Assembly (NCBI RefSeq): GCF_022846255.1
Contig: NZ_AP025682.1
Source: Escherichia coli
Lineage (GTDB): Bacteria > Pseudomonadota > Gammaproteobacteria > Enterobacterales > Enterobacteriaceae
DNA length: 64,000 nt
Direction: 5' to 3' (one strand)
Of this stretch, positions 3,901 through 46,015 are shown piece after piece (within the stretch, counting starts at the first letter, position 1; every line of letters starts with the position of its first letter). A model generated the notes under the pieces. That model was not told the origin of the DNA. It saw nothing but the letters and a program-made list of their open reading frames with translations, and did not search any database. The position numbers and the translations under genes are program-made.

Positions 3901-4823
3901 CGCTGGCGATTGACAAAACGGCGGCGCTGCTCGTCGTTCATAAAGGTCCAGGCTATAAAGCGGCTCTGCTTTTGCCCCTGGGCCATCTCTTTTTTTACCA
4001 CCTTCACCGCACCTACGTCCGTCAGAGCACGATACAACGGCGGTAAGTTTTCACCACGAGATACCAGCGAGGTAAACCACATCACCTGCTTCGCGAAGCC
4101 TTTGCTCTCTTCAATCATCTTTTTGATAAAAGCGACCTCACCGCCTTCACACCACAACTCCTGTTGCTGACCACCAAAGTTCAGTGCATCGTCTTTGTTC
4201 AGCCCCAGGTTACGGCGTTTACGTTCACTACCTGCCCGTGCCGCAGCGGCGGAATCGTGGAATGGCGGGTTACACAAGGTCGCATCGTATTGCTCGTTTT
4301 TATGGATGATGCCGTTAAAAATCGCCCCACTCTCTTTTTGCCGACGCAGACGAATAGCGCGGTTAAGCCCCGGATTAGCACTGATGATCGCCTGCGCACT
4401 GCTTAACGCCTGGCTGCTGGTTTCACTACCGGTAAAACGCCAGCCATATTCATGTACGCCAATCAGCGGATAAATACAGTTCGCACCAACGCCGATATCC
4501 AGAATGCTGGCATTAGCTGGAATTGTTCCGCTTGCTTCAGCCAGTAAATCGGCAAGGTGATGAATATAATCCGCCCGGCCCGGTACTGGCGGGCAGAGAA
4601 AACCGTCCGGGATATCCCAGTTCGCTACGGCGTAAAAATGGGCCAGCAACGCCTTATTGAGCGCCTTCACCGCCAGCGGATTGGCAAAGTCTACGCTTTG
4701 CTCCCCGGTGGGTGTAAGCGTGAGGAATTGCCTGAGTTCAGGATTGACCTGACAAAGCGTGGCGAGATCGTAGCGGCTGTGATGACGGTTGCGCGGATGC
4801 AACCCCGGTTTCTGGGCGGACAT
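3897..4823 (-). CDS. rlmF: 23S rRNA m6A1618 methyltransferase RlmF
   Basis: ORF track 3897-4913; internal start [14 protein letters not shown] gives 308 aa; SAM-methyltransferase motifs ([15 protein letters not shown]). Confidence 0.92.
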
Positions 4824-5098
4824 AGCATTCTCCTTTAAGCAGCGGCGTAAGATACTCGCATAACGCGACAGGGTAAATATCTGGCTGCGTTTATCATTTC
4901 TAAAAACCTTCACATGGATATGGTTTATGGCAATTCACCATAAAAATCATCATCATGCATGTCATTGATTTGTCTTATTTTGTAAAAATATATCGTTCAA
5001 AAAATAAGCGCATCTCTGTCAATTTTTTGCGTCATTTTCATCGCGCAGGCGACCTACACTTATCTGGCACTACCCGTTGTATTTATGAGGATGTCATT

Positions 5099-5359
5099 AT
5101 GAAAAAGTGCCTCACACTACTGATTGCCACCGTCCTGAGCGGAATCTCTCTCACGGCTTATGCCGCGCAACCGATGAGTAACCTGGACAGAGGTCAACTA
5201 CGGCCCGCCGGTACCGTTTCGGCAACTGGCGCATCAAACCTAAGCGATCTGGAGGATAAACTGGCAGAAAAAGCGCGCGAACAAGGCGCGAAAGGTTATG
5301 TCATTAATTCCGCAGGCGGAAATGACCAGATGTTCGGTACTGCAATCATCTACAAATAA
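5099..5359 (+). CDS. mcbA: DUF1471 (YdgH/BhsA/McbA family) periplasmic protein McbA
   Basis: 86-aa ORF from ATG at 5099, signal peptide then the family C-terminal ...GTAIIYK. Confidence 0.9.
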   Translation: MKKCLTLLIATVLSGISLTAYAAQPMSNLDRGQLRPAGTVSATGASNLSDLEDKLAEKAREQGAKGYVINSAGGNDQMFGTAIIYK

Positions 5360-9664: not shown

Positions 9665-9667
9665 TTC

Positions 9668-9744
9668 GTAGGACGGATAAGGCGTTTACGCCGCATCCGG
9701 CAACAGATGCCTGATGCGACGCTACCGCGTCTTATCAGACCTAC
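9668..9744. repeat. REP elements downstream of ybiJ
   Basis: gtaggacggataaggcgtttacgccgcatccggca and gcctgatgcgacgctaccgcgtcttatcagacctac. Confidence 0.85.
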
Positions 9745-28987: not shown

Positions 28988-29977
28988 TTAGCCACCAATG
29001 TACGATAAGTTTTGCGTAATACCGGTGTTATTTTGATGCAGGAAATGGGTCTGTTTTTTCTCCCGCAGCGCCGCTGAAATACGCGCTTCCAGCGCCTGTT
29101 GCTGGGTATCGTCTTCCAGCAGATCGCGCAGGTTAACGCCGCCTTCACCAAACAGGCAGAGATGGAGTTTACCAATGGAGGAAACGCGCAGGCGGTTGCA
29201 AGTGGCGCAGAAGTCTTTTTCATACGGCATGATAAGGCCAATCTCTCCGGCGTAATCCGGATGACAAAAGACTTGCGCGGGACCGTCGCTGCGTTGACGT
29301 AATTGGTGGATCCAGCCGCGACGCAGTAGCTCGTCACGCAGAACCTGACCAGAGATGTGATGCTTACGGAAGAGCTCGCTGCCCTCGCCCGTTTCCATCA
29401 ATTCGATGAAACGCAGCTGGATAGGGCGATGCTGGATCCAGTTCAGAAAGGTGTCGAGCTGATGATGATTAACATCACGCATCAGCACGGTATTGACTTT
29501 GACCTTCTCAAAACCGGCCTCAAATGCAGCATCGATTCCTGCCATGACCTGGTTGAATTTATCCTGCCCGGTAATGGCATGAAACTGGCGAGCGTCAAGG
29601 CTATCAACGCTGACGTTGATGCCAGTAAGTCCAGCATCGCGCCAGTTCGCCACATCGCGTTCCAGACGGTAACCATTGGTGGTGACCGCAATCTGGCGGA
29701 TAGCGTCGTTTTCCCGCACAGCGGCGATGATATCGGTAAAGTCGCGGCGTAAAGATGGCTCACCGCCCGTCAGACGGACTTTTTCGGTGCCAAGACTGGC
29801 GAAGGCGCGCGTAACCCGGCGAATTTCATCGACGGTAAGAAAGCCTTTATTGGTGACGCCGCTCGGTTTGTAGCCATCCGGCAGGCAGTAGGTGCAACGA
29901 AAGTTACACACATCGGTAATCGACAGGCGCAAGTAGTAAAACTTACGCGCAAATGCATCAGTCAGTTGTGAAGCCAT
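28988..29977 (-). CDS. moaA: GTP 3',8-cyclase (radical SAM)
   Basis: ORF track 28988-30058; 329 aa from [31 protein letters not shown] (CxxxCxxC radical SAM motif). Confidence 0.96.
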
Positions 29978-29979
29978 GT

Positions 29980-30125
29980 ACACCTTTCCAGATACGGGAG
30001 GCGAAGTCATTTCTTCCTTCGCCCTGGTGGCAATCTTTACAAGCATTGTCACGGCCAAAGCACCGTATCAGTTGACCCAGGTGCAGAGGCTAGAGTGTTT
30101 AGTGGTTAAGCCGATACTAGCGTGT
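29980..30125 (-). promoter_or_regulatory. moaA 5' leader; expected location of the Moco riboswitch RNA motif
   Basis: Long GC-structured leader directly upstream of moaA; assigned from known biology of the E. coli moaA leader, boundaries approximate and not folded. Confidence 0.5.
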
Positions 30126-30153
30126 AAATGAGATTTTTACCATCCACACTTTC

Positions 30154-30177
30154 GCTATGTAATCATGTATATAGCGT
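30154..30177. promoter_or_regulatory. ModE-like palindromic site in moaA promoter (cgctatgtaatcatgtatatagcg)
   Basis: Inverted repeat CGCTAT...ATAGCG with TAT-rich core resembling the modA operator; moaA is a known ModE target. Confidence 0.45.
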
Positions 30178-30313
30178 CATGATCGTGCTATTTCGCTACA
30201 GAATAAGGGAAAATGGCGGTTTTACTTTGATATACATCATCAGGGATGCATAGCGTGCATCGTCCTTTAGAGGTAGAAGAAAATAGTTTGTATCCTCAAT
30301 ATTGGCAGGTTAA

Positions 30314-31282
<969 letters not shown>

Positions 31283-31319
31283 CACGAAGCCGGAAGAATA
31301 TTCCGGCTTCGTCATCTTG

Positions 31320-33341
31320 TCACGACGCGGCAATAAACAGCTCACGCAACTGATGCAACTGGTCACGAATTTGCGCCGCTTCTTCGAACTCCAGATTCTG
31401 CGCGTGTTGCATCATCAACCCTTCCAGTTCATGGATCTTCTGCTGTAACGCTTTAGGCGACATATCCATCGGCACATTATCCGGTTCAACAATCGGGCGC
31501 GATTTTCCTCTGCCCTTCGCTTTGGTTTTGGCAATGTTCTGCCCCAGCGCCAGGATATCGACCACTTTCTTGTTCAAGCCTTGCGGCGTAATGCCGTGTT
31601 CTTCGTTGTACTTCTGCTGTTTCTCGCGGCGACGTTCGGTTTCGCCAATCGCTTTCGCCATTGATGGGGTGATCTTATCGCCGTAGAGAATCGCTTTACC
31701 GTTAACGTTACGTGCCGCACGACCAATGGTCTGGATCAACGAACGTTCGGAACGCAGGAAGCCTTCTTTGTCAGCGTCGAGGATCGCCACCAGCGAAACT
31801 TCCGGCATATCCAGACCTTCGCGCAGTAAGTTGATCCCTACCAATACGTCGAACTCACCCAGACGCAAGTCGCGGATAATCTCCATACGTTCGACGGTGT
31901 CGATATCTGAGTGAAGATAACGCACGCGCTCACCGTGTTCTTCGAGATATTCAGTGAGATCTTCCGCCATCCGCTTGGTCAGAGTTGTAACCAGTACGCG
32001 TTCGTTAATTGCCGCTCGCTGACGAATCTCCGAAAGAAGATCATCCACCTGTGTTGCCACTGGCCGCACTTCGATAATCGGGTCGAGTAAGCCTGTTGGA
32101 CGCACCACCTGATCCACCACATCGCCACCGGATTTTTCCAGCTCGTAATTACCCGGCGTCGCCGAAACATAGATGGTTTGCGGCGCTAATGCTTCGAACT
32201 CTTCAAATTTCAGCGGACGGTTATCCAGCGCTGATGGCAGGCGGAAGCCGTACTCCACCAGTGTCTCTTTACGCGCCCGGTCACCGCGATACATGCCGCC
32301 AATTTGTGGAATGGTGACGTGAGATTCATCGACCACCAGCAGCCCATCAGCAGGCAGGTAATCAAACAGCGTCGGCGGTGGCTCACCCGGTCCACGACCG
32401 GAGAGGAAGCGCGAGTAGTTCTCAATCCCCGAACAGTAGCCTAGCTCGTTCATCATCTCCAGATCAAACTGGGTACGCTGGGTCAGCCGCTGCTCTTCCA
32501 GCAGTTTGTTGTTTTCCAATAGCACTTTACGTCTGGCGGCCAGCTCTTCTTTGATCTCCTCCATCGCCTGGACGATGCGCTCGCGTGGCGTGACGTAGTG
32601 CGTTTTCGGGTAGATGGTAAAACGTGGAATAGTGGAAACAATCTGCCCGGTCAGCGGGTCAAATAACGACAATCGTTCCACTTCCTCGTCAAACAGCTCC
32701 ACGCGAAGTGCAATGTCATCCGATTCTGCCGGGAAGATATCAATCACCTCGCCACGAACACGGAAAGTACCACGCTGGAAGGCTTGATCATTACGAGCAT
32801 ATTGCAGCTCCGCCAGTCGGCGCAGGATCGCGCGCTGATCGATAATCATACCGACCGTGAGATGGAGCATCATCTTGAGATATAAATCAGGATCGCCCAG
32901 ACCATAAATCGCGGAAACAGACGCCACCACAACCACATCACGCCGCTCCAGCATCGCTTTGGTGGCGGACAAACGCATCTGTTCGATATGTTCGTTTACC
33001 GAGGCATCTTTCTCAATGAAGGTGTCGGAACTCGGTACATAGGCCTCCGGCTGATAGTAGTCGTAGTAGGAGACGAAATATTCCACCGCGTTTTCCGGGA
33101 AGAATTCTTTCATTTCGCCATACAGCTGGGCCGCCAGCGTTTTGTTGGGCGCAAGTACCATGGTTGGGCGCTGAAGGTCAGCAATGACATTGGCAATGGT
33201 GAAGGTTTTCCCGGAGCCAGTCACGCCAAGTAACGTCTGGTGCGCCAGGCCATCTTCCAGCCCCTCTTCGAGACGTCGAATCGCCTCCGGCTGATCGCCA
33301 GAAGGTTTAAAAGCGGAATTCAGTTTGAACGGTTTACTCAT
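31320..33341 (-). CDS. uvrB: excinuclease ABC subunit B
   Basis: 673-aa ORF, Walker A GVTGSGKT, helicase motifs, C-terminal UVR domain. Confidence 0.97.
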
Positions 33342-33415
33342 GAGTCGCTACCTGAAGGAGTTGGGCGGGCAGGTATGTAATTTTACTCGTCGTACTTAAT
33401 TATGCCAACAAATTA

Positions 33416-33435
33416 TACTGGATAAAAAAACAGTT
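33416..33435 (-). promoter_or_regulatory. LexA (SOS) operator of uvrB
   Basis: Plus strand tactggataaaaaaacagtt; reverse complement aactgtttttttatccagta is the known uvrB SOS box (CTG-N10-CAG). Confidence 0.85.
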
Positions 33436-33737
33436 CATCACCATAATATTTCTGTTACAGCGTAAACTCCGCTGTCAATCATGAGCAAAATTTACTCTGC
33501 GGCGAGATAAAACTCCGGCCTTACCGGGTTATCCCCAAAGCAACGGCTTTTTTAACATTTGTCAAGATGATTGATGACAGTTTTATGGCAAGAGATGCCT
33601 GTTCAGTGACTGCCATTGCAATTATCTAACCTGTTAAAAAATAAAAGATATTTCTTTGAGCCGTCTTTAACGCCAATTCGCGTGCAAGCCGCGTATTCTC
33701 TCGCTTGCCTCGTGTTTTCTAACTCTAATACACATGG

Positions 33738-33760
33738 TTATCCACAGGAATAGTGGATAA
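33738..33760. promoter_or_regulatory. pair of inverted DnaA boxes (ttatccaca / agtggataa) in uvrB distal promoter region
   Basis: Consensus TTATCCACA read directly plus a near-consensus inverted copy 5 nt away; fits the DnaA-regulated distal uvrB promoter. Confidence 0.6.
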
Positions 33761-33919
33761 CTGTCTGCAGCCCCTATCCCCCGCCGCCTGGGCAATTCCC
33801 ACATTCACCGCATGATGCGGAGGTAAAATTTTTTTCGTGATTTTTTTAGAATTTAATTGGTTAAATTGCAGTCAATCGGAGACGCGATCTCGCTCACAAT
33901 TTAACCAAGCACAGGATGA

Positions 33920-34597
33920 CTACATTAAGGCAAGATTGATGTACTTTCCGGTTGCCGCATTTTCTGGATTTTCTGCAAGCCAGGGAATTTCGCCCAGCAG
34001 CGGCGCGGGAATCATGCGGGTGAGCGTGGTCATATATTCAGCGTGACGTTTTCCCGGAGGCGTGACATCGTTCGCCACCCACCCCGCCAGAGTCAGTCCG
34101 GCGTGTAGTATTGCCTGCGCAGTCAACATCGCGTGATTAATACAGCCGAGTTTCACGCCCACAACCAGTATCACTGGCAGTTGTTCCTGTGTTACCCAAT
34201 CCGCAAAAGTGAAAGTGTCAGAAAGCGGCGTAAACCAGCCGCCAGCACCTTCCACTAACACCCAGTCAGCCTGTTGTTCAAGCGCGCGTAATCCGGCGCT
34301 CATTACCGATGATTCTATCGGCCTGCCCTCTTGCGCGCTGATGATGTGCGGCGAGGTGGGTTCTGCGAAGGTGTAAGGATTTACCGTTGCGTAATCCAGC
34401 TGCAGGCTACTGTTGCGCTGTAACGCCAGCGCGTCACTATTACGTAAGCCTTTCAGGGTCTTTTCGCTGCCAGAGGCGACCGGTTTGTAACCTGCCGTCC
34501 GGTAGCCTGCTGCCTTTGCGGCTTGTAAAAGCGCGCAGCTGGCGACAGTTTTCCCCACTTCGGTATCCGTTCCGGTGACAAAATAACATTTACTCAC
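33920..34597 (-). CDS. bioD: dethiobiotin synthetase
   Basis: 225 aa from GTG start (M)[16 protein letters not shown] (P-loop); overlaps bioC stop. Confidence 0.95.
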
Positions 34598-35345
34598 GAG
34601 CAATCACTCCCAAAAAAAGATGATACGTCAGAGGATATCGCCCCTGTTGTTGCGGCCAGGCCAGTTGCAATCGCTGCAACTGCGAACGCGTTAATATTCG
34701 CGGGTCACGCCCTTCATGAAGATGCGTGGCACCGATGCCTTTCAGCGAACGCATAGCACTGAGCGCATCATCAAACCACAGCGTGATGGGCTGAATATGA
34801 TGTTGATAATGCACGGCGTTTAGCGACTGTTCGATTTCATCTGGCGGTAAAAAGCGATTAGCATGCGGACGCTCGTCCACCGCCTGCCACGCCTGATGCA
34901 GTTCGGGTAACGATCCCTGCACCAGCGTGGTAAACGCGACCACGCCTCCGGGGCGCACCACCCGATACAGCTCGCGGAGTGCCGTGGATAAATTACCGCA
35001 CCACTGCACCGCGAGATTGCTCCATGCAAGATCGAACGTCGCAGTCGCTAACGGCAGGGATTCGATATCTCCCGCCAGATAATGGTCTGCGGCATCCTTC
35101 TGGCGTGCCTGAACAAGCATTGGCGGAGAGAGATCTAACGCAGTCACCTGCGCGTGACGCTCTCGCCAGCGGCGGCTCATCCAGCCTGGTCCACAACCCG
35201 CATCCAGTACGTGGGTGTATTTACGCTGTGGGAGCATTGCCAGTAAGGCGTCAGCACTCTGGCGCTGTAGATCGGCGTGTTGCTCATAGTGTGCGGCTGC
35301 CCGTCCAAATGCCGCAGCAATGGCTTGTTTATTAACCGTTGCCAT
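34590..35345 (-). CDS. bioC: malonyl-ACP O-methyltransferase
   Basis: ORF track 34590-35384; 251 aa from [17 protein letters not shown]; SAM-binding DAGCGPG. Confidence 0.95.
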
Positions 35346-36486
35346 GCAGCACCTCCAGCAGACGGTCGATATCCTGCATTTCATGCGCTGCGGTTAGCGT
35401 TAAGCGCAGTCGCGCAGTACCAGCGGGTACGGTTGGTGGGCGAATTGCCGTGACCCAACAGCCTTGCTGGCGCAGTTTTTCTGCCAGTTGTAACGCACGG
35501 CTGTTATCACCGACGATCAATGGCTGGATGGCGCTGCATGAGTCAGCAAGCGTAAACGGCAAATCCTGCACTCCGGCACGAAAACGAGTAATGAGTGCCG
35601 CCAGTTTTTCGCGCCGTGCATCCCCCTCATCACTGCGAATGACCGCCAGCGACGCACGTAATGCCTGCGCCTGAGCGGGCGGCATACTGGTGCTGTAGAT
35701 AAGATGGCGAGCGAATTGCAGCAGATAATCCGCCACGGTATCGGAGCAAAGCACCGCTGCCCCGCTGACGCCAAATCCTTTGCCAAACGTCACCACCAGC
35801 AATTCTGGTTTTACCTTTTGCAGCCAGCAGCTGCCACGCCCCTGTTCCCCGATAACGCCCGTGCCGTGGGCGTCATCGACCAACAACCAGCCATCGTGCT
35901 GTTGCGTTACTTGCTGGATTTCCTCCAGTGGCGCACTATCGCCGTCCATGCTGAACACACCTTCTGTCACTACCAGTTGCTGCCCCGGACAGGGGGAAGC
36001 AAGCAGTCGCGCCAGATGAGTGACATCGTTATGAGCAAAACGGCGAAGCGGCGACGGGCTTAAACTTGCAGCCTCCAGCAATGAGGCATGGCTAAGCCGG
36101 TCGGCAACAATACGGTCCTCTTTCGCCATCATCGCGGCAATGACTGCCTGATTAGCCGCAAAACCAGAGATAAACAGCAGCGCCCGCGAATAGCCCAGCC
36201 ACTCGGCCAGTTCTTCTTCCAGCGCCTGATGCGCCACGCTATAACCGCTGACGTGACCGGAGCCGCCGCTACCGACGCCAAATTGATCCGCGCCCTGCTG
36301 CCAGGCACGGATAATTTGCGGGTGATGACTTAAACCGAGGTAATCATTACTGGAAAAGTTCAGATACTGGCGATCATCTGCCACCAGCCAGCATCCGGCC
36401 CCTTGCGCCACCGGATAACGGCGACGCAGGGCATCAGCAGCACGCCGCGCATCGAGCGCCGAATTGATTTTCTCCTGCCAGCTCAT
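35332..36486 (-). CDS. bioF: 8-amino-7-oxononanoate synthase
   Basis: 384-aa ORF, PLP-dependent aminotransferase class II. Confidence 0.96.
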
Positions 36487-37523
36487 AGTGCTGCCGCGTT
36501 GTAATATTCGTCGGTGTCCGGGGTCATTAGTGCCTGCTCCAGACGCTGCTGTTGTTCGTTATCGCCCGCCAGAACGGCGGTTTGTTGCGGATTCAGCCCC
36601 AGTTTGCGGAACAGTTGCAGATCTTTATCTTCTTCCGGATTCGGCGTGGTCAGCAGTTTGCAACCGTAGAAAATCGAGTTTGCGCCAGCCATAAAGCACA
36701 TCGCCTGAGTCTGTTCGTTCATCTGCTCGCGTCCGGCAGAAAGGCGTACGTAAGAGGTCGGCATCATGATCCGCGCTACGGCAATGGTACGGATAAAATC
36801 AAAGGCATCGACATCGTCGTTATCCGCCAGCGGCGTGCCTTTCACCTTCACCAGCATGTTGATTGGCACGCTTTCCGGCGGCGTCGGCAAGTTTGCCAGT
36901 TGCAGCAATAATCCGGCGCGATCTTTCACCGTTTCGCCTAAGCCCACAATGCCACCTGAACAGACTTTAATCCCAGCTTCTCGCACTTTTTCCAGCGTAT
37001 CGAGACGTTCCTGATAGGTGCGGGTGGTGATGATATTGCCGTAAAACTCCGGCGAGGTGTCGAGGTTGTGGTTATAGTAATCCAGCCCGGCATTCGCCAG
37101 GCGCTGCGCCTGAGATTCACTCAACGTGCCCAGCGTCATACACGCCTCCAGCCCCATCGCTTTTACCCCCTGCACCATTTGTTCCAGGTACGGCATATCG
37201 CGTTCGTGGGGATTCTTCCACGCCGCGCCCATACAGAAACGCGTCGATCCCGCCGCTTTCGCTTTGCGCGCCGACTCCAGCACCTGTTCAACTTCCATCA
37301 ACCGCTCGGCTTCCAGCCCGGTTTTGTAGCGCGAGCTTTGCGGGCAATATTTGCAATCTTCCGGACAAGCTCCGGTCTTAATCGACAGCAAAGTGCTGAC
37401 CTGCACCTGACGAGGATCGAAATGCTGACGATGCACCTGCTGCGCTTCAAACAGCAGATCCAGCAACGGTTTTTCAAATAATTCTGTGACTTGCGACAAT
37501 GTCCAGCGTGGGCGGTGAGCCAT
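36483..37523 (-). CDS. bioB: biotin synthase (radical SAM)
   Basis: 346-aa ORF with CPEDCKYC radical SAM cysteine motif. Confidence 0.97.
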
Positions 37524-37563
37524 GGGGCTTCTCCAAAACGTGTTTTTTGTTGTTAATTCGGTG

Positions 37564-37603
37564 TAGACTCGTAAACCTAAATCTTTTCAATTTGGTTTAC
37601 AAG
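37564..37603. promoter_or_regulatory. bio operator (BirA binding site) in the divergent bioB/bioA control region
   Basis: Imperfect palindrome ctcgtaaacc-taaatcttttcaattt-ggtttacaag matches the known bioO except one arm position. Confidence 0.85.
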
Positions 37604-37609
37604 TCGATT

Positions 37610-38899
37610 ATGACAACGGACGATCTTACCTTTGACCAACGCCATATCTGGCACCCATACACATCCATGACCTCCCCGCTGCCGGTTTATCCGGTGGCAA
37701 GCGCCGAAGGTTGCGAGCTAATTTTGTCTGACGGCAGACGCCTGGTTGACGGTATGTCGTCCTGGTGGGCGGCGATCCACGGTTACAATCACCCGCAGCT
37801 TAATGCGGCGATGAAGTCGCAAATTGATGCTATGTCGCATGTGATGTTTGGCGGTATCACCCATGCGCCCGCCATTGAGCTGTGCCGCAAATTGGTGGCA
37901 ATGACGCCGCAACCGCTGGAGTGCGTTTTTCTCGCGGACTCCGGCTCCGTAGCGGTAGAAGTGGCGATGAAAATGGCGTTGCAGTACTGGCAGGCCAAAG
38001 GCGAAGCGCGCCAGCGTTTTCTAACCTTCCGCAATGGTTATCATGGCGATACCTTTGGCGCGATGTCGGTGTGCGATCCGGACAACTCAATGCACAGCCT
38101 GTGGAAAGGCTATCTGCCAGAAAACCTGTTTGCTCCCGCCCCGCAAAGCCGCATGGATGGCGAATGGGATGAGCGTGATATGGTGGGCTTTGCCCGCCTG
38201 ATGGCAGCGCATCGTCATGAAATCGCGGCGGTGATCATTGAACCGATTGTCCAGGGCGCAGGCGGGATGCGCATGTACCATCCGGAATGGTTAAAACGAA
38301 TCCGCAAAATGTGCGATCGCGAAGGTATCTTGCTGATTGCCGACGAGATCGCTACCGGATTTGGTCGTACCGGCAAACTGTTTGCCTGTGAACATGCAGA
38401 AATCGCGCCGGATATTTTGTGTCTCGGTAAAGCCTTAACCGGCGGCACAATGACCCTTTCCGCCACGCTCACCACGCGCGAGGTTGCGGAAACCATCAGT
38501 AACGGCGAAGCCGGCTGCTTTATGCATGGGCCAACTTTTATGGGCAATCCGCTGGCCTGCGCAGCAGCAAACGCCAGCCTGGCGATTCTTGAATCTGGCG
38601 ACTGGCAGCATCAGGTGGCGGCTATTGAAGCGCAGCTACGCGAGCAACTTGCCCCCGCCTGTGACGCCGAAATGGTTGCCGATGTGCGCGTACTGGGGGC
38701 AATCGGCGTGGTCGAAACCACTCGTCCGGTGAATATGGCAGCGCTGCAAAAATTCTTTGTCGAACAGGGTGTCTGGATCCGGCCTTTTGGCAAACTGATT
38801 TACCTGATGCCGCCCTATATTATTCTCCCGCAACAGTTGCAGCGTCTGACCGCAGCGGTTAACCGTGCAGTGCAGGATGAAACATTTTTTTGCCAATAA
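37610..38899 (+). CDS. bioA: adenosylmethionine-8-amino-7-oxononanoate aminotransferase
   Basis: ORF track 37499-38899; 429 aa from ATG at 37610 ([20 protein letters not shown]). Confidence 0.96.
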
Positions 38900-38957
38900 C
38901 GGGAAGTCAGCGTGAGGGTTTCTGGCTACACTTTCTGCAAACTAGAAAGGAGGGTTC

Positions 38958-39434
38958 ATGAAACTCATCAGTAACGATCTGCGCGATGGCGATAAGCTGC
39001 CGCATCGTCATGTCTTTAACGGCATGGGTTACGATGGCGATAATATTTCACCGCATCTGGCGTGGGATGATGTTCCTGCGGGAACGAAAAGTTTTGTTGT
39101 CACCTGCTACGACCCGGATGCGCCAACCGGCTCCGGCTGGTGGCACTGGGTAGTTGTTAATTTACCCGCTGATACCCGCGTATTACCGCAAGGGTTTGGC
39201 TCTGGTATGGTAGCAATGCCAGACGGCGTTTTGCAGACGCGTACCGACTTTGGTAAAACCGGGTACGATGGTGCAGCGCCGCCGAAAGGCGAAACCCATC
39301 GCTACATTTTTACCGTTCACGCGCTGGATGTAGAACGTATTGATGTCGATGAAGGTGCCAGCGGCGCGATGGTCGGGTTTAACGTTCATTTCCACTCTCT
39401 GGCAAGCGCCTCGATTACTGCGATGTTTAGTTAA
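38958..39434 (+). CDS. ybhB: PEBP/RKIP-family (kinase inhibitor-like) protein YbhB
   Basis: 158-aa ORF with PEBP motifs (YDPDAPT..., GxHRY). Confidence 0.92.
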   Translation: MKLISNDLRDGDKLPHRHVFNGMGYDGDNISPHLAWDDVPAGTKSFVVTCYDPDAPTGSGWWHWVVVNLPADTRVLPQGFGSGMVAMPDGVLQTRTDFGKTGYDGAAPPKGETHRYIFTVHALDVERIDVDEGASGAMVGFNVHFHSLASASITAMFS

Positions 39435-39585
39435 TCACTCTGCCAGATGGCGCAATGCCATCTGGTATCACTTAAAGGTATTAAAAACAACTTTTTGTCT
39501 TTTTACCTTCCCGTTTCGCTAAAGTTAGTATAAAAAAGCAGGCTTCAACGGATTCATTTTTCTATTTCATAGCCCGGAGCAACCT

Positions 39586-40869
39586 GTGAACACATTTTCA
39601 GTTTCCCGTCTGGCGCTGGCATTGGCTTTTGGCGTGACGCTGACCGCCTGTAGCTCAACACCGCCCGATCAACGTCCTTCTGATCAAACCGCGCCTGGTA
39701 CCTCTTCTCGCCCGATTCTGTCGGCAAAAGAAGCGCAGAATTTCGATGCTCAACACTATTTTGCATCCCTGACACCAGGTGCGGCAGCGTGGAATCCTTC
39801 CCCGATTACCCTGCCTGCGCAACCTGACTTTGTTGTCGGCCCGGCGGGTACTCAAGGTGTAACGCATACCACGATTCAGGCGGCGGTAGATGCGGCAATT
39901 ATCAAGCGTACCAACAAGCGCCAGTATATTGCCGTGATGCCTGGTGAGTATCAGGGAACGGTATATGTCCCTGCCGCTCCGGGTGGAATTACTCTGTACG
40001 GTACAGGTGAAAAACCGATTGATGTGAAGATTGGGCTTTCCCTTGATGGGGGCATGAGCCCTGCCGACTGGCGTCACGACGTCAACCCGCGCGGCAAATA
40101 TATGCCAGGTAAACCAGCGTGGTATATGTACGATAGCTGCCAGAGCAAACGCAGCGACAGTATCGGCGTTCTCTGCTCTGCGGTCTTCTGGTCACAAAAC
40201 AATGGACTGCAACTGCAAAACCTGACCATCGAAAACACGCTGGGCGATAGCGTAGATGCGGGTAACCATCCGGCGGTGGCACTGCGTACTGATGGTGACC
40301 AGGTACAGATTAACAACGTTAACATTCTCGGTCGTCAGAACACCTTCTTTGTCACCAACAGCGGTGTGCAGAACCGTCTGGAAACGAATCGTCAGCCGCG
40401 TACGCTGGTGACCAACAGCTACATTGAAGGGGATGTGGATATCGTTTCTGGTCGCGGCGCAGTGGTGTTCGATAACACCGAATTCCGCGTGGTGAACTCC
40501 CGTACCCAGCAAGAAGCGTATGTGTTTGCACCGGCTACGCTGTCCAACATTTACTACGGTTTCCTCGCCGTAAACAGCCGTTTCAATGCTTCCGGTGATG
40601 GCGTGGCGCAACTGGGCCGCTCGCTGGATGTTGATGCCAATACCAACGGTCAGGTAGTGATCCGTGATAGCGCCATCAACGAAGGTTTTAACACGGCCAA
40701 ACCGTGGGCCGATGCGGTGATCTCAAATCGTCCGTTTGCGGGTAACACCGGCAGCGTTGATGATAAAGACGAAATACAGCGCAATCTGAATGACACTAAC
40801 TACAACCGCATGTGGGAATACAATAACCGCGGCGTGGGTAGCAAAGTGGTTGCAGAGGCGAAGAAGTAG
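39586..40869 (+). CDS. ybhC: pectinesterase-fold outer-membrane lipoprotein YbhC
   Basis: 427-aa ORF, lipoprotein signal peptide (LTACSS), pectin methylesterase-like motifs. Confidence 0.92.
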   Translation: MNTFSVSRLALALAFGVTLTACSSTPPDQRPSDQTAPGTSSRPILSAKEAQNFDAQHYFASLTPGAAAWNPSPITLPAQPDFVVGPAGTQGVTHTTIQAAVDAAIIKRTNKRQYIAVMPGEYQGTVYVPAAPGGITLYGTGEKPIDVKIGLSLDGGMSPADWRHDVNPRGKYMPGKPAWYMYDSCQSKRSDSIGVLCSAVFWSQNNGLQLQNLTIENTLGDSVDAGNHPAVALRTDGDQVQINNVNILGRQNTFFVTNSGVQNRLETNRQPRTLVTNSYIEGDVDIVSGRGAVVFDNTEFRVVNSRTQQEAYVFAPATLSNIYYGFLAVNSRFNASGDGVAQLGRSLDVDANTNGQVVIRDSAINEGFNTAKPWADAVISNRPFAGNTGSVDDKDEIQRNLNDTNYNRMWEYNNRGVGSKVVAEAKK

Positions 40870-40884
40870 GAGCTGTTAACTATG

Positions 40885-40995
<111 letters not shown>

Positions 40996-41009
40996 TCACA
41001 TGGCGCTTT

Positions 41010-43271
41010 TTACATCTGACGGTTTTTATTGAAGTTAATCAAACTACCCGCCTTGATAATCTCGCGCTCTTCGGCCGTCAGGCTTTCCATATAGAGCGTG
41101 ATTTCCGTTACCGGCGCATCTTCATGGATCACATAACCTTTAAACGTCGTTCCAGGATTATCCAGCGCCGTTTTAATGCCAGGGATGTAAATGTAATCCC
41201 CCACTTCAAACGTTGGTGCTTCCGCCATTTGCAGCGGTAACATCCCCCAGTTGATGACGTTAGAACGGTAGCGTTTAGTCGCGTATTCCTCGGCAATATT
41301 CGCCAGACCGCCAATCACACGCTGGCAGCTCGCCGCCTGCTCACGCGCAGAACCATCGCCTGGTTTCACCGCATAGACCATGCTGCCAATTTCAGTTTGC
41401 AGCGGATCAATATGCTCCTGACCAGCAATCTGCTTAATGCGCGCAAACACCTCTGTCAGCTCGCTGACATTCCCCGCCAGACGCTGATTTTCCAGCTCAG
41501 CAGTCGCTTTACTTCTGCCAACATAACCGGGATCGCGGCGTGACAGGGTAAACTCCGCCAGACCAATCGGATTTGAACGATAAGAAGAGGTTTCACCGGA
41601 AGGAATCAGTTCGTCGGTGGTGGTGACTTCGTCGAGGATCTTCGAGCACACTTTGAGGACGATATTGTCAGTCAGCGCACCCAATTCCGGCCAGTCTTTG
41701 ATGTTCGGTCCGTAGATCAGCGGTTGCTGGGTCGCCCCTTTCACAAAGCCTTGATAGACGCGATTTTTATACGGCGTTACATCGAAGGCGTACTCCGGCA
41801 CGTTGTCCCAGCAATCGAGTTCGCTGGCAGAGGTTAAATAGCCACCGTTTGCCGCAGTCGCAGCGATAGAACGAGCGTCCATCAACGCCACCGCTGACAT
41901 CTGCCCATTAGCTGGCTTAGAGCCTTCGCGGTTCGGGAAGTTACGCGTGGTGTGGCGAATACTCAAACCGTTGTTGATTGGCGTATCGCCCGCGCCAAAG
42001 CATGGGCCGCAGAACGCGGTTCTGATGATTGCGCCTGCGCCAATCAAATCTGCTACCACACCTTTTTTGGCGAGATCCATAAACACCGGCTGTGATGACG
42101 GGTAAACCGCCAACGAGAAGGTATCGTTGCCGCAGGATTGACCGCGCAGCGCATTCGCCGCCGCGATGACGTTTTCGTAGTTACCGCCAGAACAGCCCGC
42201 GATAATCCCCTGCTGCACTTTCAGGCGACCATTTTCCACTTTATCCAGCAGCGAGAGTTTGGCTTTACCGTGCGCCACGCGTTCGGACTCAATTTCAATC
42301 TCACGCAGAATGTCGGTCAGATTCTGGTTCAGCGTGTCGATTTCATACACGTTGCTCGGGTGGAATGGCAGCGCAATCATTGGTTTGATGGCGCTTAAAT
42401 CAACACTGATGCAGCCATCGTAGTACGCCATTGGTTGAGGGTTAAGTTGGCAGTAATCCTGGCCGCGACCGTGCAGCGCCAGCCAGTTATGGACTTCTTC
42501 ATCGGTTTGCCAGACAGAACTTAAACAGGTCGTTTCAGTGGTCATCACGTCAACGCTGTTGCGGAAATCGGTAGAGAGCGCTGCAACACCGGGACCTACG
42601 AACTCCATCACTTTGTTTTTGACGTAACCGTTTTTGAACACGGCACCGATGATAGCCAGCGCCACATCCTGCGGCCCCACATACGGCGCAGGTTTTCCGG
42701 TCAGATGCACCGCAACCACGCCCGGATAGTCGATATCCCAGGTGTCATTAAGCAGTTGTTTTACCAGCTCGCCGCCGCCCTCACCGACTGCCATTGTCCC
42801 TAATGCGCCGTAACGGGTGTGGCTGTCTGATCCGAGGATCATTTTGCCGCCGCCAGCCATCATTTCACGCATATATTGATGGATGACCGCAATATGCGGT
42901 GGCACAAAAATACCGCCATAACGCTGGGCCGCCGATAAACCAAAAATATGGTCATCACCGTTAATGGTGCCGCCGACGGCGCAGAGTGAGTTATGGCAGT
43001 TGGTCAGCACATACGGCAGCGGGAAACGTTCCATACCGGACGCTTTAGCGGTCTGTACAATACCAACAAAGGTAATATCGTGAGAGGCTAATGAATCAAA
43101 CTTAATTTTAAGTTTATCCATATTACCAGACGTATTATGAGAAGAGAGAATAGACCAGGCAATAGTGCCTTTTTTTGCTTCTTCTTTTTTTATTTCGCCG
43201 GTGAAATGTTCTTCGGCAATTATTTCGTTATTGCTGGCGAGAAACACGCCTTTTTCAGATAACTTGATCAT
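41010..43271 (-). CDS. ybhJ: aconitase-family [4Fe-4S] hydratase YbhJ
   Basis: ORF track 41010-43295; 753 aa from MIKLSEKG; aconitase motifs (SDSHT, AGCSGG, CGPCFG cysteine ligands), C-terminal swivel-like domain. Confidence 0.9.
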
Positions 43272-43338
43272 CAAATGCTCCAGATATCTGCGCACCGTGA
43301 AGTGCGCAGAAAGATAATAAATGGATATACTCTAAATA

Positions 43339-43448
43339 ATTCGAGTTGCAGGAAGGCGACAAGCGAGTGAATCCCCAGGAGCTTACATAAGTAAGTGACT
43401 GGGGTGAGCGAACGCAGACGCAGCACATGCAACTTGAAGTATGACGAG
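43339..43448. repeat. ERIC / IRU element between ybhJ and ybhI
   Basis: Contains both ERIC halves: gtgaatccccaggagcttacat and aagtaagtgactggggtgagcg, then ...cagcacatgcaacttgaagtatgacgag. Confidence 0.9.
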
Positions 43449-43453
43449 TATAT

Positions 43454-44887
43454 TTACAGCATGTTCCAGCCGATCAGCATATTCCACCACCACACGCCGA
43501 GGGTGATATGCACCAGGAAGGTTAATATCGTCAGTACCGCACCGACCAACCACCAGGATTTAATATCGTTGTAACCCACGCCAAAGATGACCGGACCTGC
43601 CGCGCCGCCATAGTGAGTAACCATGCCGCCATAGGAGTTAGAGAACAACAGTGCCAGCGCGGTTAACATTAACGGTGCGCCGGAGACGTTCGCCAGCATG
43701 GCAAACACAGGTAACATAGCAACGATATAGGCACTACCAGAAGCGAAGAAATAACGCACGATGATGCTGAGGAAAATAATAACGAAGAAAGCAACGTTCC
43801 CGTGACCATCAAATGCCAGGTTATTTTTAAAGACTTCAGCTAACCATTCGAAGAATTTAACTTTCGATAATAAGGAGCTTAAGCCGATAATACCGCCGTA
43901 CCAGATTAAGGTATTCCAGCCGCCTTTATTTTTAACCACGTCTTCCCAGGTAACGATACCCAGCAGCAGCATAGTTGCCATAACAACGATTGCCACGGTG
44001 GATTCATCAACCCCCAGAGACTTACTGAAAATCCAGCCCAGCAGCGCCAGCACAAAGACACCGAGCAGCATTTTTTCGCGGATTTTCATCGGTCCCAGTT
44101 CGGCAAGGCCCGCTTTAGCGATGGTTTTGTTATCCACCTTCTTAATTTCTGGTGGATACATGGTGTAAATCACCAGCGGGGTGACCAGCAGCATAATGAT
44201 GCCCGGCAATCCGGCGGCTAGCGCCCATCCACCCCAGCTAATTTGCAGGTGCAGAATGTCGTTGATCATTTTCAGCGCCAGAATGTTCCCCGCCATTGCG
44301 GTAAAGAACATATAGCTGGTGGTTTTAGTGACCATGTAAATGGACATCATCAGGTAATGTCCAACACGACGCGGACTTTTTTCCGGTTCTGATCCCAAAG
44401 CCACTGCCACGCTGTTGATGATCGGTAACACGATGCCGCCCGCACGCGCGGTGTTAGACGGTGTTGCCGGAGCCAGTACCAGATCGAGAAATACCGTAAC
44501 GTAACCCAGACCCAGGGTAGTGCTACCAATTTTACCAATCAGCAGATAGGCAATACGTTTACCTAAGCCTGTGGTTACAAACGCGGCGCTTAAAGTAAAC
44601 GCAGAAAACACCAGCCAGGTGGTACCGGAAGAGTAACCGCTTAATACGGCGGTGGTTTTAAATTCCCCACCTGATAAGTTACCCACCACGACCATCGATG
44701 CGGCGACGGCAATTAACAGTACGACAGGTTCCGGGAAAGGCTTGATAACCAGCCCCACAATGGCCGCCAGGTAAATACCAAAAAGCACCCACGCCAGTTC
44801 GCTTAATCCTGCCGGAGCTGGCATAAAGCCAATAATACATGGGATCGCTAATATCAGAATTAGCTTCCATAACGATTTTTTATTCAT
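43454..44887 (-). CDS. ybhI: DASS-family anion (di/tricarboxylate-type) transporter YbhI
   Basis: 477-aa polytopic membrane ORF of DASS/SLC13-like architecture. Confidence 0.9.
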   Translation of the reverse strand: MNKKSLWKLILILAIPCIIGFMPAPAGLSELAWVLFGIYLAAIVGLVIKPFPEPVVLLIAVAASMVVVGNLSGGEFKTTAVLSGYSSGTTWLVFSAFTLSAAFVTTGLGKRIAYLLIGKIGSTTLGLGYVTVFLDLVLAPATPSNTARAGGIVLPIINSVAVALGSEPEKSPRRVGHYLMMSIYMVTKTTSYMFFTAMAGNILALKMINDILHLQISWGGWALAAGLPGIIMLLVTPLVIYTMYPPEIKKVDNKTIAKAGLAELGPMKIREKMLLGVFVLALLGWIFSKSLGVDESTVAIVVMATMLLLGIVTWEDVVKNKGGWNTLIWYGGIIGLSSLLSKVKFFEWLAEVFKNNLAFDGHGNVAFFVIIFLSIIVRYFFASGSAYIVAMLPVFAMLANVSGAPLMLTALALLFSNSYGGMVTHYGGAAGPVIFGVGYNDIKSWWLVGAVLTILTFLVHITLGVWWWNMLIGWNML

Positions 44888-44962
44888 TTAATATCCTGTT
44901 CTTTCTGTATGACTCATACAGAATTCCTTTATTGATTGTCATTATCACGACAACAAAATTTT

Positions 44963-46015
44963 TCAGGGAAGATAAACTTCACCGGAAAATATTTTTCTTG
45001 TCGTCCGAATAACAGATGCGCGTAACGTCGTGGCATCCTGACCTTCATTACTTAAATGAACGTCGAGCGCACCACTGGGGTGTTCAATATTGATATTGCC
45101 GTATCCTACAGAAGGGACGATTTGTCGGGTGACGGTACCTTCCAATGCACAACTACTGGAAATAGCAATAGCACCGGTTATCGCCAAAGCGCGATGGCAA
45201 GAATGCGGCATAAAATAACGCACATTAATTGCCCCGCCTTTCTGCGCTGGAGAAATAAGTACAGGTTTAGGGATAACCATATTACTGACATCGCCTAAGC
45301 CCATTGCTTTACCCGCTTGTAGACGGATAGATTCAATGCGGGCTAATAATGCTTTGTCGGCATCCAGCTCTGCCGGTAATTCATAGCCTGTTTTTCCCAG
45401 ATATTCAGCAGGAATAATGACAACTGGCATCGCCATATCGATACAGGTCACCGGGACATCGTCAAAATAATCAATCTGATTATCCGTCGGGAAGACTTTT
45501 CCGGTTTTCGTTCCGGCGGCATTCAGGAAAGTGAGCGCAACCGGTGCGGCAGTACCCGGTACGCCGTCAATTCTGGCGCTACCCTCGTACTCGACAACAC
45601 CATTTGGCGTTTGCACATCAGCTTCGATAAACGTACCCGTATTGACGTTGCGGATACGTACGCGGGTAACTGGCGAAGTCGCTGCAATCAAACCATTTTC
45701 AATGGCGAATGCCCCAACGCCAGACAGCATATTGCCGCAGTTAGGCGTGGTATCGACACGTTGCTCATGGACGATAACTTGAGCAAACAGATAATCGACA
45801 TCTGCACGCGGATCGCTGGAGCGGCTAATAATGGCGACTTTACTGGTCAGCGGATTACCGCCGCCAATACCGTCAATTTCCAGATCGTTACCGGAACCCA
45901 TAATTGCCATCAATATTTTATCGCGCTGCGTTTGATCTTCGGGTAGATGTTCCGCTAACAGGAACGCGCCCCTCGAGGTTCCACCTCGCATCATCACGCA
46001 GGGTATTTTTTTCAT
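44963..46015 (-). CDS. ybhH: PrpF-family isomerase YbhH
   Basis: 350-aa ORF; PrpF/AcnD-accessory family features. Confidence 0.88.
   Translation of the reverse strand: MKKIPCVMMRGGTSRGAFLLAEHLPEDQTQRDKILMAIMGSGNDLEIDGIGGGNPLTSKVAIISRSSDPRADVDYLFAQVIVHEQRVDTTPNCGNMLSGVGAFAIENGLIAATSPVTRVRIRNVNTGTFIEADVQTPNGVVEYEGSARIDGVPGTAAPVALTFLNAAGTKTGKVFPTDNQIDYFDDVPVTCIDMAMPVVIIPAEYLGKTGYELPAELDADKALLARIESIRLQAGKAMGLGDVSNMVIPKPVLISPAQKGGAINVRYFMPHSCHRALAITGAIAISSSCALEGTVTRQIVPSVGYGNINIEHPSGALDVHLSNEGQDATTLRASVIRTTRKIFSGEVYLP

Follow-up and report, generated by a model that had tools for sequence, protein, structure and literature searches.

The analysed stretch of DNA, referred to as the window, comprises 64,000 nt of an Escherichia coli contig and contains a biotin locus arranged as in K-12, with bioB, bioF, bioC and bioD on the minus strand and bioA on the plus strand, in the same gene order as in the annotated records of MG1655, SK1144 and CFT073. 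The divergent bioB and bioA genes are separated by an intergenic region of 86 bp, and birA is absent from the 64-kb window. All five bio genes have intact reading frames:

33920-34597, minus strand: bioD, with a GTG start and Cys at residue 4
34590-35345, minus strand: bioC
35332-36486, minus strand: bioF
36483-37523, minus strand: bioB, biotin synthase
37610-38899, plus strand: bioA

The bioB-bioA intergenic region contains bioO, the BirA operator, whose parts are as follows:

37566-37605, no strand assigned: bioO, a 40-bp BirA operator and imperfect inverted repeat between the divergent bioB and bioA, with 39 of 40 bases as in K-12
37566-37577, no strand assigned: bioB-proximal 12-bp arm GACTCGTAAACC (K-12: GACTTGTAAACC), defined from the sequence and the MG1655 alignment
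37594-37605, no strand assigned: bioA-proximal 12-bp arm GGTTTACAAGTC, unchanged in all 26 loci tabulated, among the matches listed
37570, no strand assigned: polymorphic base at operator position 5, C in the window and T in K-12

The operator reads GACTCGTAAACC-TAAATCTTTTCAATTT-GGTTTACAAGTC, and a repeat finder returned 15-nt arms (37566-37580 and 37591-37605) with 87% complementarity. As these arms are symmetric, the 40-bp operator was placed at 37566-37605; the sequence-only reading had recognized the BirA operator correctly, but its interval of 37564-37603 sits 2 bp to the left of the symmetric one. The site has the GTAAACC and GGTTTAC cores 16 bp apart within an imperfect inverted repeat of about 40 bp, lies in the short stretch between the divergent bioA and bioBFCD, and is nearly identical to the experimentally defined K-12 operator (39 of 40 bases). 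K-12 bioO thus agrees with that of the window in location, length, spacing (GTAAACC-N16-GGTTTAC) and flanking genes, and in 85 of 86 intergenic bases, but differs at operator position 5 (37570). The site is therefore expected to be a normal bioO, presumably bound by BirA and responsive to biotin.

Alignment with MG1655 showed that position 37570, which is C in the window and T in MG1655, is the sole differing column among 106 aligned. The 86-bp intergenic region accordingly carries one difference from MG1655, and none from SK1144, CFT073 and FDAARGOS_536. The termini of the K-12 operator, GACTTGTAAACC and GGTTTACAAGTC, are perfect 12-bp inverted repeats, and with C at the fifth base of the bioB-proximal arm this terminal repeat is no longer perfect. 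The reading from the letters alone had noted that one operator arm deviates from K-12, and the direct alignment with MG1655 bioO bears this out as a single T-to-C transition; as the K-12 operator is not identical to that of the window, the observation of a deviating arm stands. A second difference noted there, Cys at BioD residue 4, was likewise confirmed, K-12 having Arg at this residue and SK1144 sharing the Cys.

Three hexamers around the variant base were assigned as putative promoter elements:

37597-37602, minus strand: TTGTAA, putative −35 of the bioBFCD promoter, assigned by eye
37574-37579, minus strand: TAGGTT, candidate −10 hexamer for bioBFCD, separated from TTGTAA by 17 bp, inferred by eye
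37564-37569, plus strand: TAGACT, a −10-like hexamer of a possible bioA promoter, from alignment and inference

TTGTAA and TAGGTT are presumably the −35 and −10 elements of the bioBFCD promoter described by Otsuka and Abelson in 1978. On the bioA strand, TAGACT lies directly 5′ of the variant base, and this −10-like hexamer reads TAGACT, TAGAAT or TATACT across 10 aligned sequences. A promoter and terminator consensus scan of 37450-37680 called neither bio promoter at its thresholds, and the promoter positions are therefore those judged by eye, from which base 37570 would lie some 1-4 nt upstream of where bioB transcription is predicted to begin.

Other apparent differences, such as the BioD Cys, had been taken as a hint that the window comes from a K-12 relative carrying scattered substitutions, a view that is contradicted by the rest of the locus. 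The bio region differs from MG1655 at 252 positions in 7447 bp, that is, 96.6% identity or 3.4% divergence, and most differences in the five bio genes are third-position changes (41 of the 43 in bioB, for instance), with all frames intact. BioB and BioA of the window match the CFT073 proteins at 100% identity, and CFT073, Nissle 1917, ABU 83972 and ATCC 25922 are among the closest matches found for the bioB-bioA segment (99.0-99.3%). Over positions 1-25000 the window shows 99.9% identity with the O150:H6 strain FEX669, and a 1-kb profile against this strain gave 0-1 differences per kb up to about 29 kb, so that the first 29 kb are nearly identical, followed by 0.1-3.3% divergence per kb; at 30000-45000, no complete E. 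coli genome exceeds 98.8% identity. The breakpoint near 29000 looks like a recombination mosaic or the mark of an unsampled lineage. The source of the window is a wild, B2-like E. coli.

Compared with bioO of CFT073 and B2-type strains, the intergenic region of the window is the same (0 of 86 differences), as are the BioB and BioA proteins, whereas the flanking DNA differs by about 1.4%. CFT073, FDAARGOS_536 and FEX669 carry between bioA and ybhB a 1.3-kb insertion of the InsQ/TnpB family, which the window lacks, its bioA-ybhB intergenic region (38899-38958) being short and of the K-12 type. The insertion, whose annotation was checked in these three strains (4110-5240 in records L123 and L124, 27547-28677 in record L130 of FEX669), encodes an InsQ/TnpB-family RNA-guided endonuclease, and Nissle 1917 and ATCC 25922, among the closest bioB-bioA matches listed, also show an insertion of about 1.3 kb at this place. 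In FEX669, the nearest relative, the annotation gives ybhD (L130, 19244-20197) as a pseudogene interrupted by an internal stop. Elsewhere in the window, an element of about 37 nt is repeated in inverted orientation at 9667-9703 and 40881-40986, and window segments have a median of 27-35 match places per E. coli genome, which is consistent with intergenic repeats of the REP/BIME type.

The frequency of the two alleles within E. coli was determined by searching the 81-mer at 37540-37620 in 5426 complete genomes, 5419 of which carry the region; at this length, the identity class of ≥99% means zero mismatches. The C 81-mer of the window matched exactly in 1925 of the 5419 genomes and the T 81-mer of MG1655 in 3231, and the remaining genomes, about 260, have an 81-mer with other changes. 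The C was verified base by base in CFT073, FDAARGOS_536, SK1144, MS1170, Z1323HEC0462 and Z142-7. Strains that carry C have more than one bioB-bioA haplotype: over the 2417 positions from bioB to bioA, there are 92 differences between Z1323HEC0462 and the window, 64 for Z142-7 and 90 for K-12. The occurrence of C on deeply diverged backgrounds indicates either an ancestral base or an old polymorphism that recombination has spread. Two other rare natural variants of bioO were also found, a C-to-A change in the O111:H11 strain 8D at the equivalent of 37568, in the outer bioB-proximal arm (GAATTGTAAACC) and two bases away from the polymorphic position, and a T-to-C change in strain KFu024 at the equivalent of 37584, in the central spacer.

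These counts leave no room for reading the C as an error of sequencing or assembly, or as a mutation newly arisen in this strain alone, a reading that would have only the single base and nothing further in its favour and is refuted by the same 81-mer in 1925 independent complete genomes, the strains verified by base and the same base in other genera.

For the distribution of the alleles beyond E. coli, one genome per species was scanned for GTAAACC-N16-GGTTTACA, which gave at least 120 loci, mostly chance matches in unrelated phyla. Only loci with the site between BioB and BioA homologues, as confirmed by tblastn, were kept and oriented with bioB to the left; they represent at least 20 Enterobacteriaceae species other than E. 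coli, which is a small sample. Because the scan pattern needed at least one arm reading TGTAAACC, operators with C in both arms would escape it. Among the matches listed, position 5 is C in 14 and T in 6 of 20 non-E. coli species. The 14 C carriers among these matches comprise several Citrobacter, including C. werkmanii and C. youngae, Kosakonia cowanii, Lelliottia nimipressuralis, Siccibacter colletis, Enterobacter sp. Ag1, a Pluralibacter MAG and others, and the six T carriers include Cedecea neteri, Silvania confinis, a Lelliottia species and MAGs of Klebsiella, Enterobacter and Citrobacter. The operators of Citrobacter, Kosakonia, Lelliottia, Siccibacter and Pluralibacter have the same asymmetric form as that of the window, the bioB-proximal arm having CGTAAACC and the bioA-proximal arm having TGTAAACC on the opposite strand, at the same 16-bp spacing, but they are a few bases apart from it in the spacer and outer flanks.

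Among the matches listed, the C is confined to the bioB-proximal arm, with the mirror base of the bioA-proximal arm constant in 26 of 26 loci, and the tabulated loci have only T or C at position 5, never A or G. The C allele, together with one spacer change, was also found in a genome named 'Escherichia coli strain E69' (CP089930.1, a 4.44-Mb chromosome). This genome has only 92.0% identity with the window over the 7.5-kb bio region and 96.7% for the BioA protein, and is thus probably another Escherichia species under the E. coli name.

Taken over both surveys, C probably predates T in Escherichia and its relatives, a judgement on the ancestral state that draws on few outgroups, since E. albertii, E. 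fergusonii and Salmonella lie outside the recovered cross-species sample. The T form of K-12, with its perfect symmetry, is just the alternative allele.

The sequence-only reading had further proposed that the change could weaken BirA repression in the manner of an operator-constitutive (Oc) allele. Laboratory Oc mutations of bioO have reportedly been described by Ketner and Campbell in 1975 and by Barker, Kuhn and Campbell in 1981. They resemble the C of the window in being single base changes inside the operator's region of symmetry, but are rare and selected for derepression, whereas the C is a common natural allele across genera. An Oc allele in this sense is a rare derived change that is not kept in natural populations, and the C allele fails this description, being present in 1925 of 5419 E. 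coli genomes on divergent haplotypes and, among the matches listed, more common than T in other Enterobacteriaceae (14 against 6). A derepressing lesion is not expected to persist so widely, and the operator-constitutive reading is therefore unsupported.

What is known of bioO gives a frame for the polymorphism. BirA charged with biotinyl-5′-AMP dimerises, and each of the winged-helix domains engages one of the terminal 12-bp arms; the bound dimer represses two overlapping divergent promoters, those of bioA and bioBFCD. In the window, a holoBirA dimer on the 40-bp operator would likewise block the overlapping bioA and bioBFCD promoters. In the bioA-proximal arm, the mirror base would fall on the second T of the putative bioBFCD −35, TTGTAA, where both BirA and RNA polymerase could constrain it, which may explain why only the bioB-proximal arm varies. 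The variant position in that arm follows the −10-like TAGACT and would be near the bioB start, where sequence requirements may be looser.

Based on this distribution, we consider it very likely that the site is the normal bioO of a B2-like E. coli, that the C is one of two long-standing natural alleles and that the operator is functional. The C operator would be expected to keep working, any quantitative effect being small at most, and both T and C appear compatible with the long-term upkeep of an intact, presumably regulated bio locus. This is the known bio operator with a common natural allele, and it indicates no new mechanism.

The main alternative, which we regard as unlikely, is that the C lowers BirA occupancy at the bioB-proximal half-site to a measurable extent and raises basal bio expression or the biotin set-point. 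This would be a mild, naturally maintained form of the operator-constitutive proposal and would apply to the carriers of C, B2 E. coli and many enterics. In its favour, the base lies within a 12-bp arm whose other bases do not vary across genera, and its mirror never varies (26 of 26 loci tabulated, among the matches listed), which argues that it is not a free position; the restriction to a T/C transition among these matches likewise suggests that the position is read. BirA binds the two bioO half-sites cooperatively (review PMC5640590), so that one weaker half-site would lower the overall affinity. Nevertheless, the allele is too common and too old for strong harm, and the invariance of the mirror base is explicable by the bioBFCD −35 hexamer instead of BirA.

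It is very doubtful, in turn, that the base acts mainly on a promoter, where T versus C could shift start-site choice or the bioA:bioBFCD ratio. The layout of the hexamers would fit such an effect, with TTGTAA, 17 bp and TAGGTT on the minus strand and, on the plus strand, TAGACT at 37564-37569, which takes one of its three forms in each of the 10 aligned sequences; however, the consensus scan called neither promoter, and bases in such a part of a promoter are usually of small effect.

The preferred reading, a tolerated natural polymorphism in a working operator, can also be set against what has been published. A literature search on the half-site, operator mutations and both allele strings, with the classic operator-mutation papers outside its scope, returned no binding or expression measurement of the C form, and the only E. 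coli paper it found with the string GGTTTACGAG concerns prophage invertase sites, not bioO. A BirA-bioO dipstick paper (NAR 2026) tested no operator variants. A PDB sequence search with a BirA query returned BirA entries only, with molecule names that mention no DNA complex.

A broader proposal, that the T/C toggle is a functional regulatory polymorphism in which the asymmetric C form, common to B2 E. coli and numerous enterics, lowers BirA occupancy at the bioB-proximal half-site or alters the overlapping promoters, appears rather improbable. If it were true, C lineages would have a biotin set-point or bioA:bioBFCD ratio unlike that of K-12-like strains, and the textbook picture of perfectly symmetric bioO termini would be a derived peculiarity of the K-12 lineage.

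Although the significance of the finding is small, it is relevant to those who use bioO and BirA as a model or biosensor, as the operator has a natural single-base variant that has apparently never been compared quantitatively. It also corrects a reference-strain bias: the symmetric termini of K-12 are one of two common natural forms of bioO, and the asymmetric form is, among the matches listed, the more common in other enteric species.
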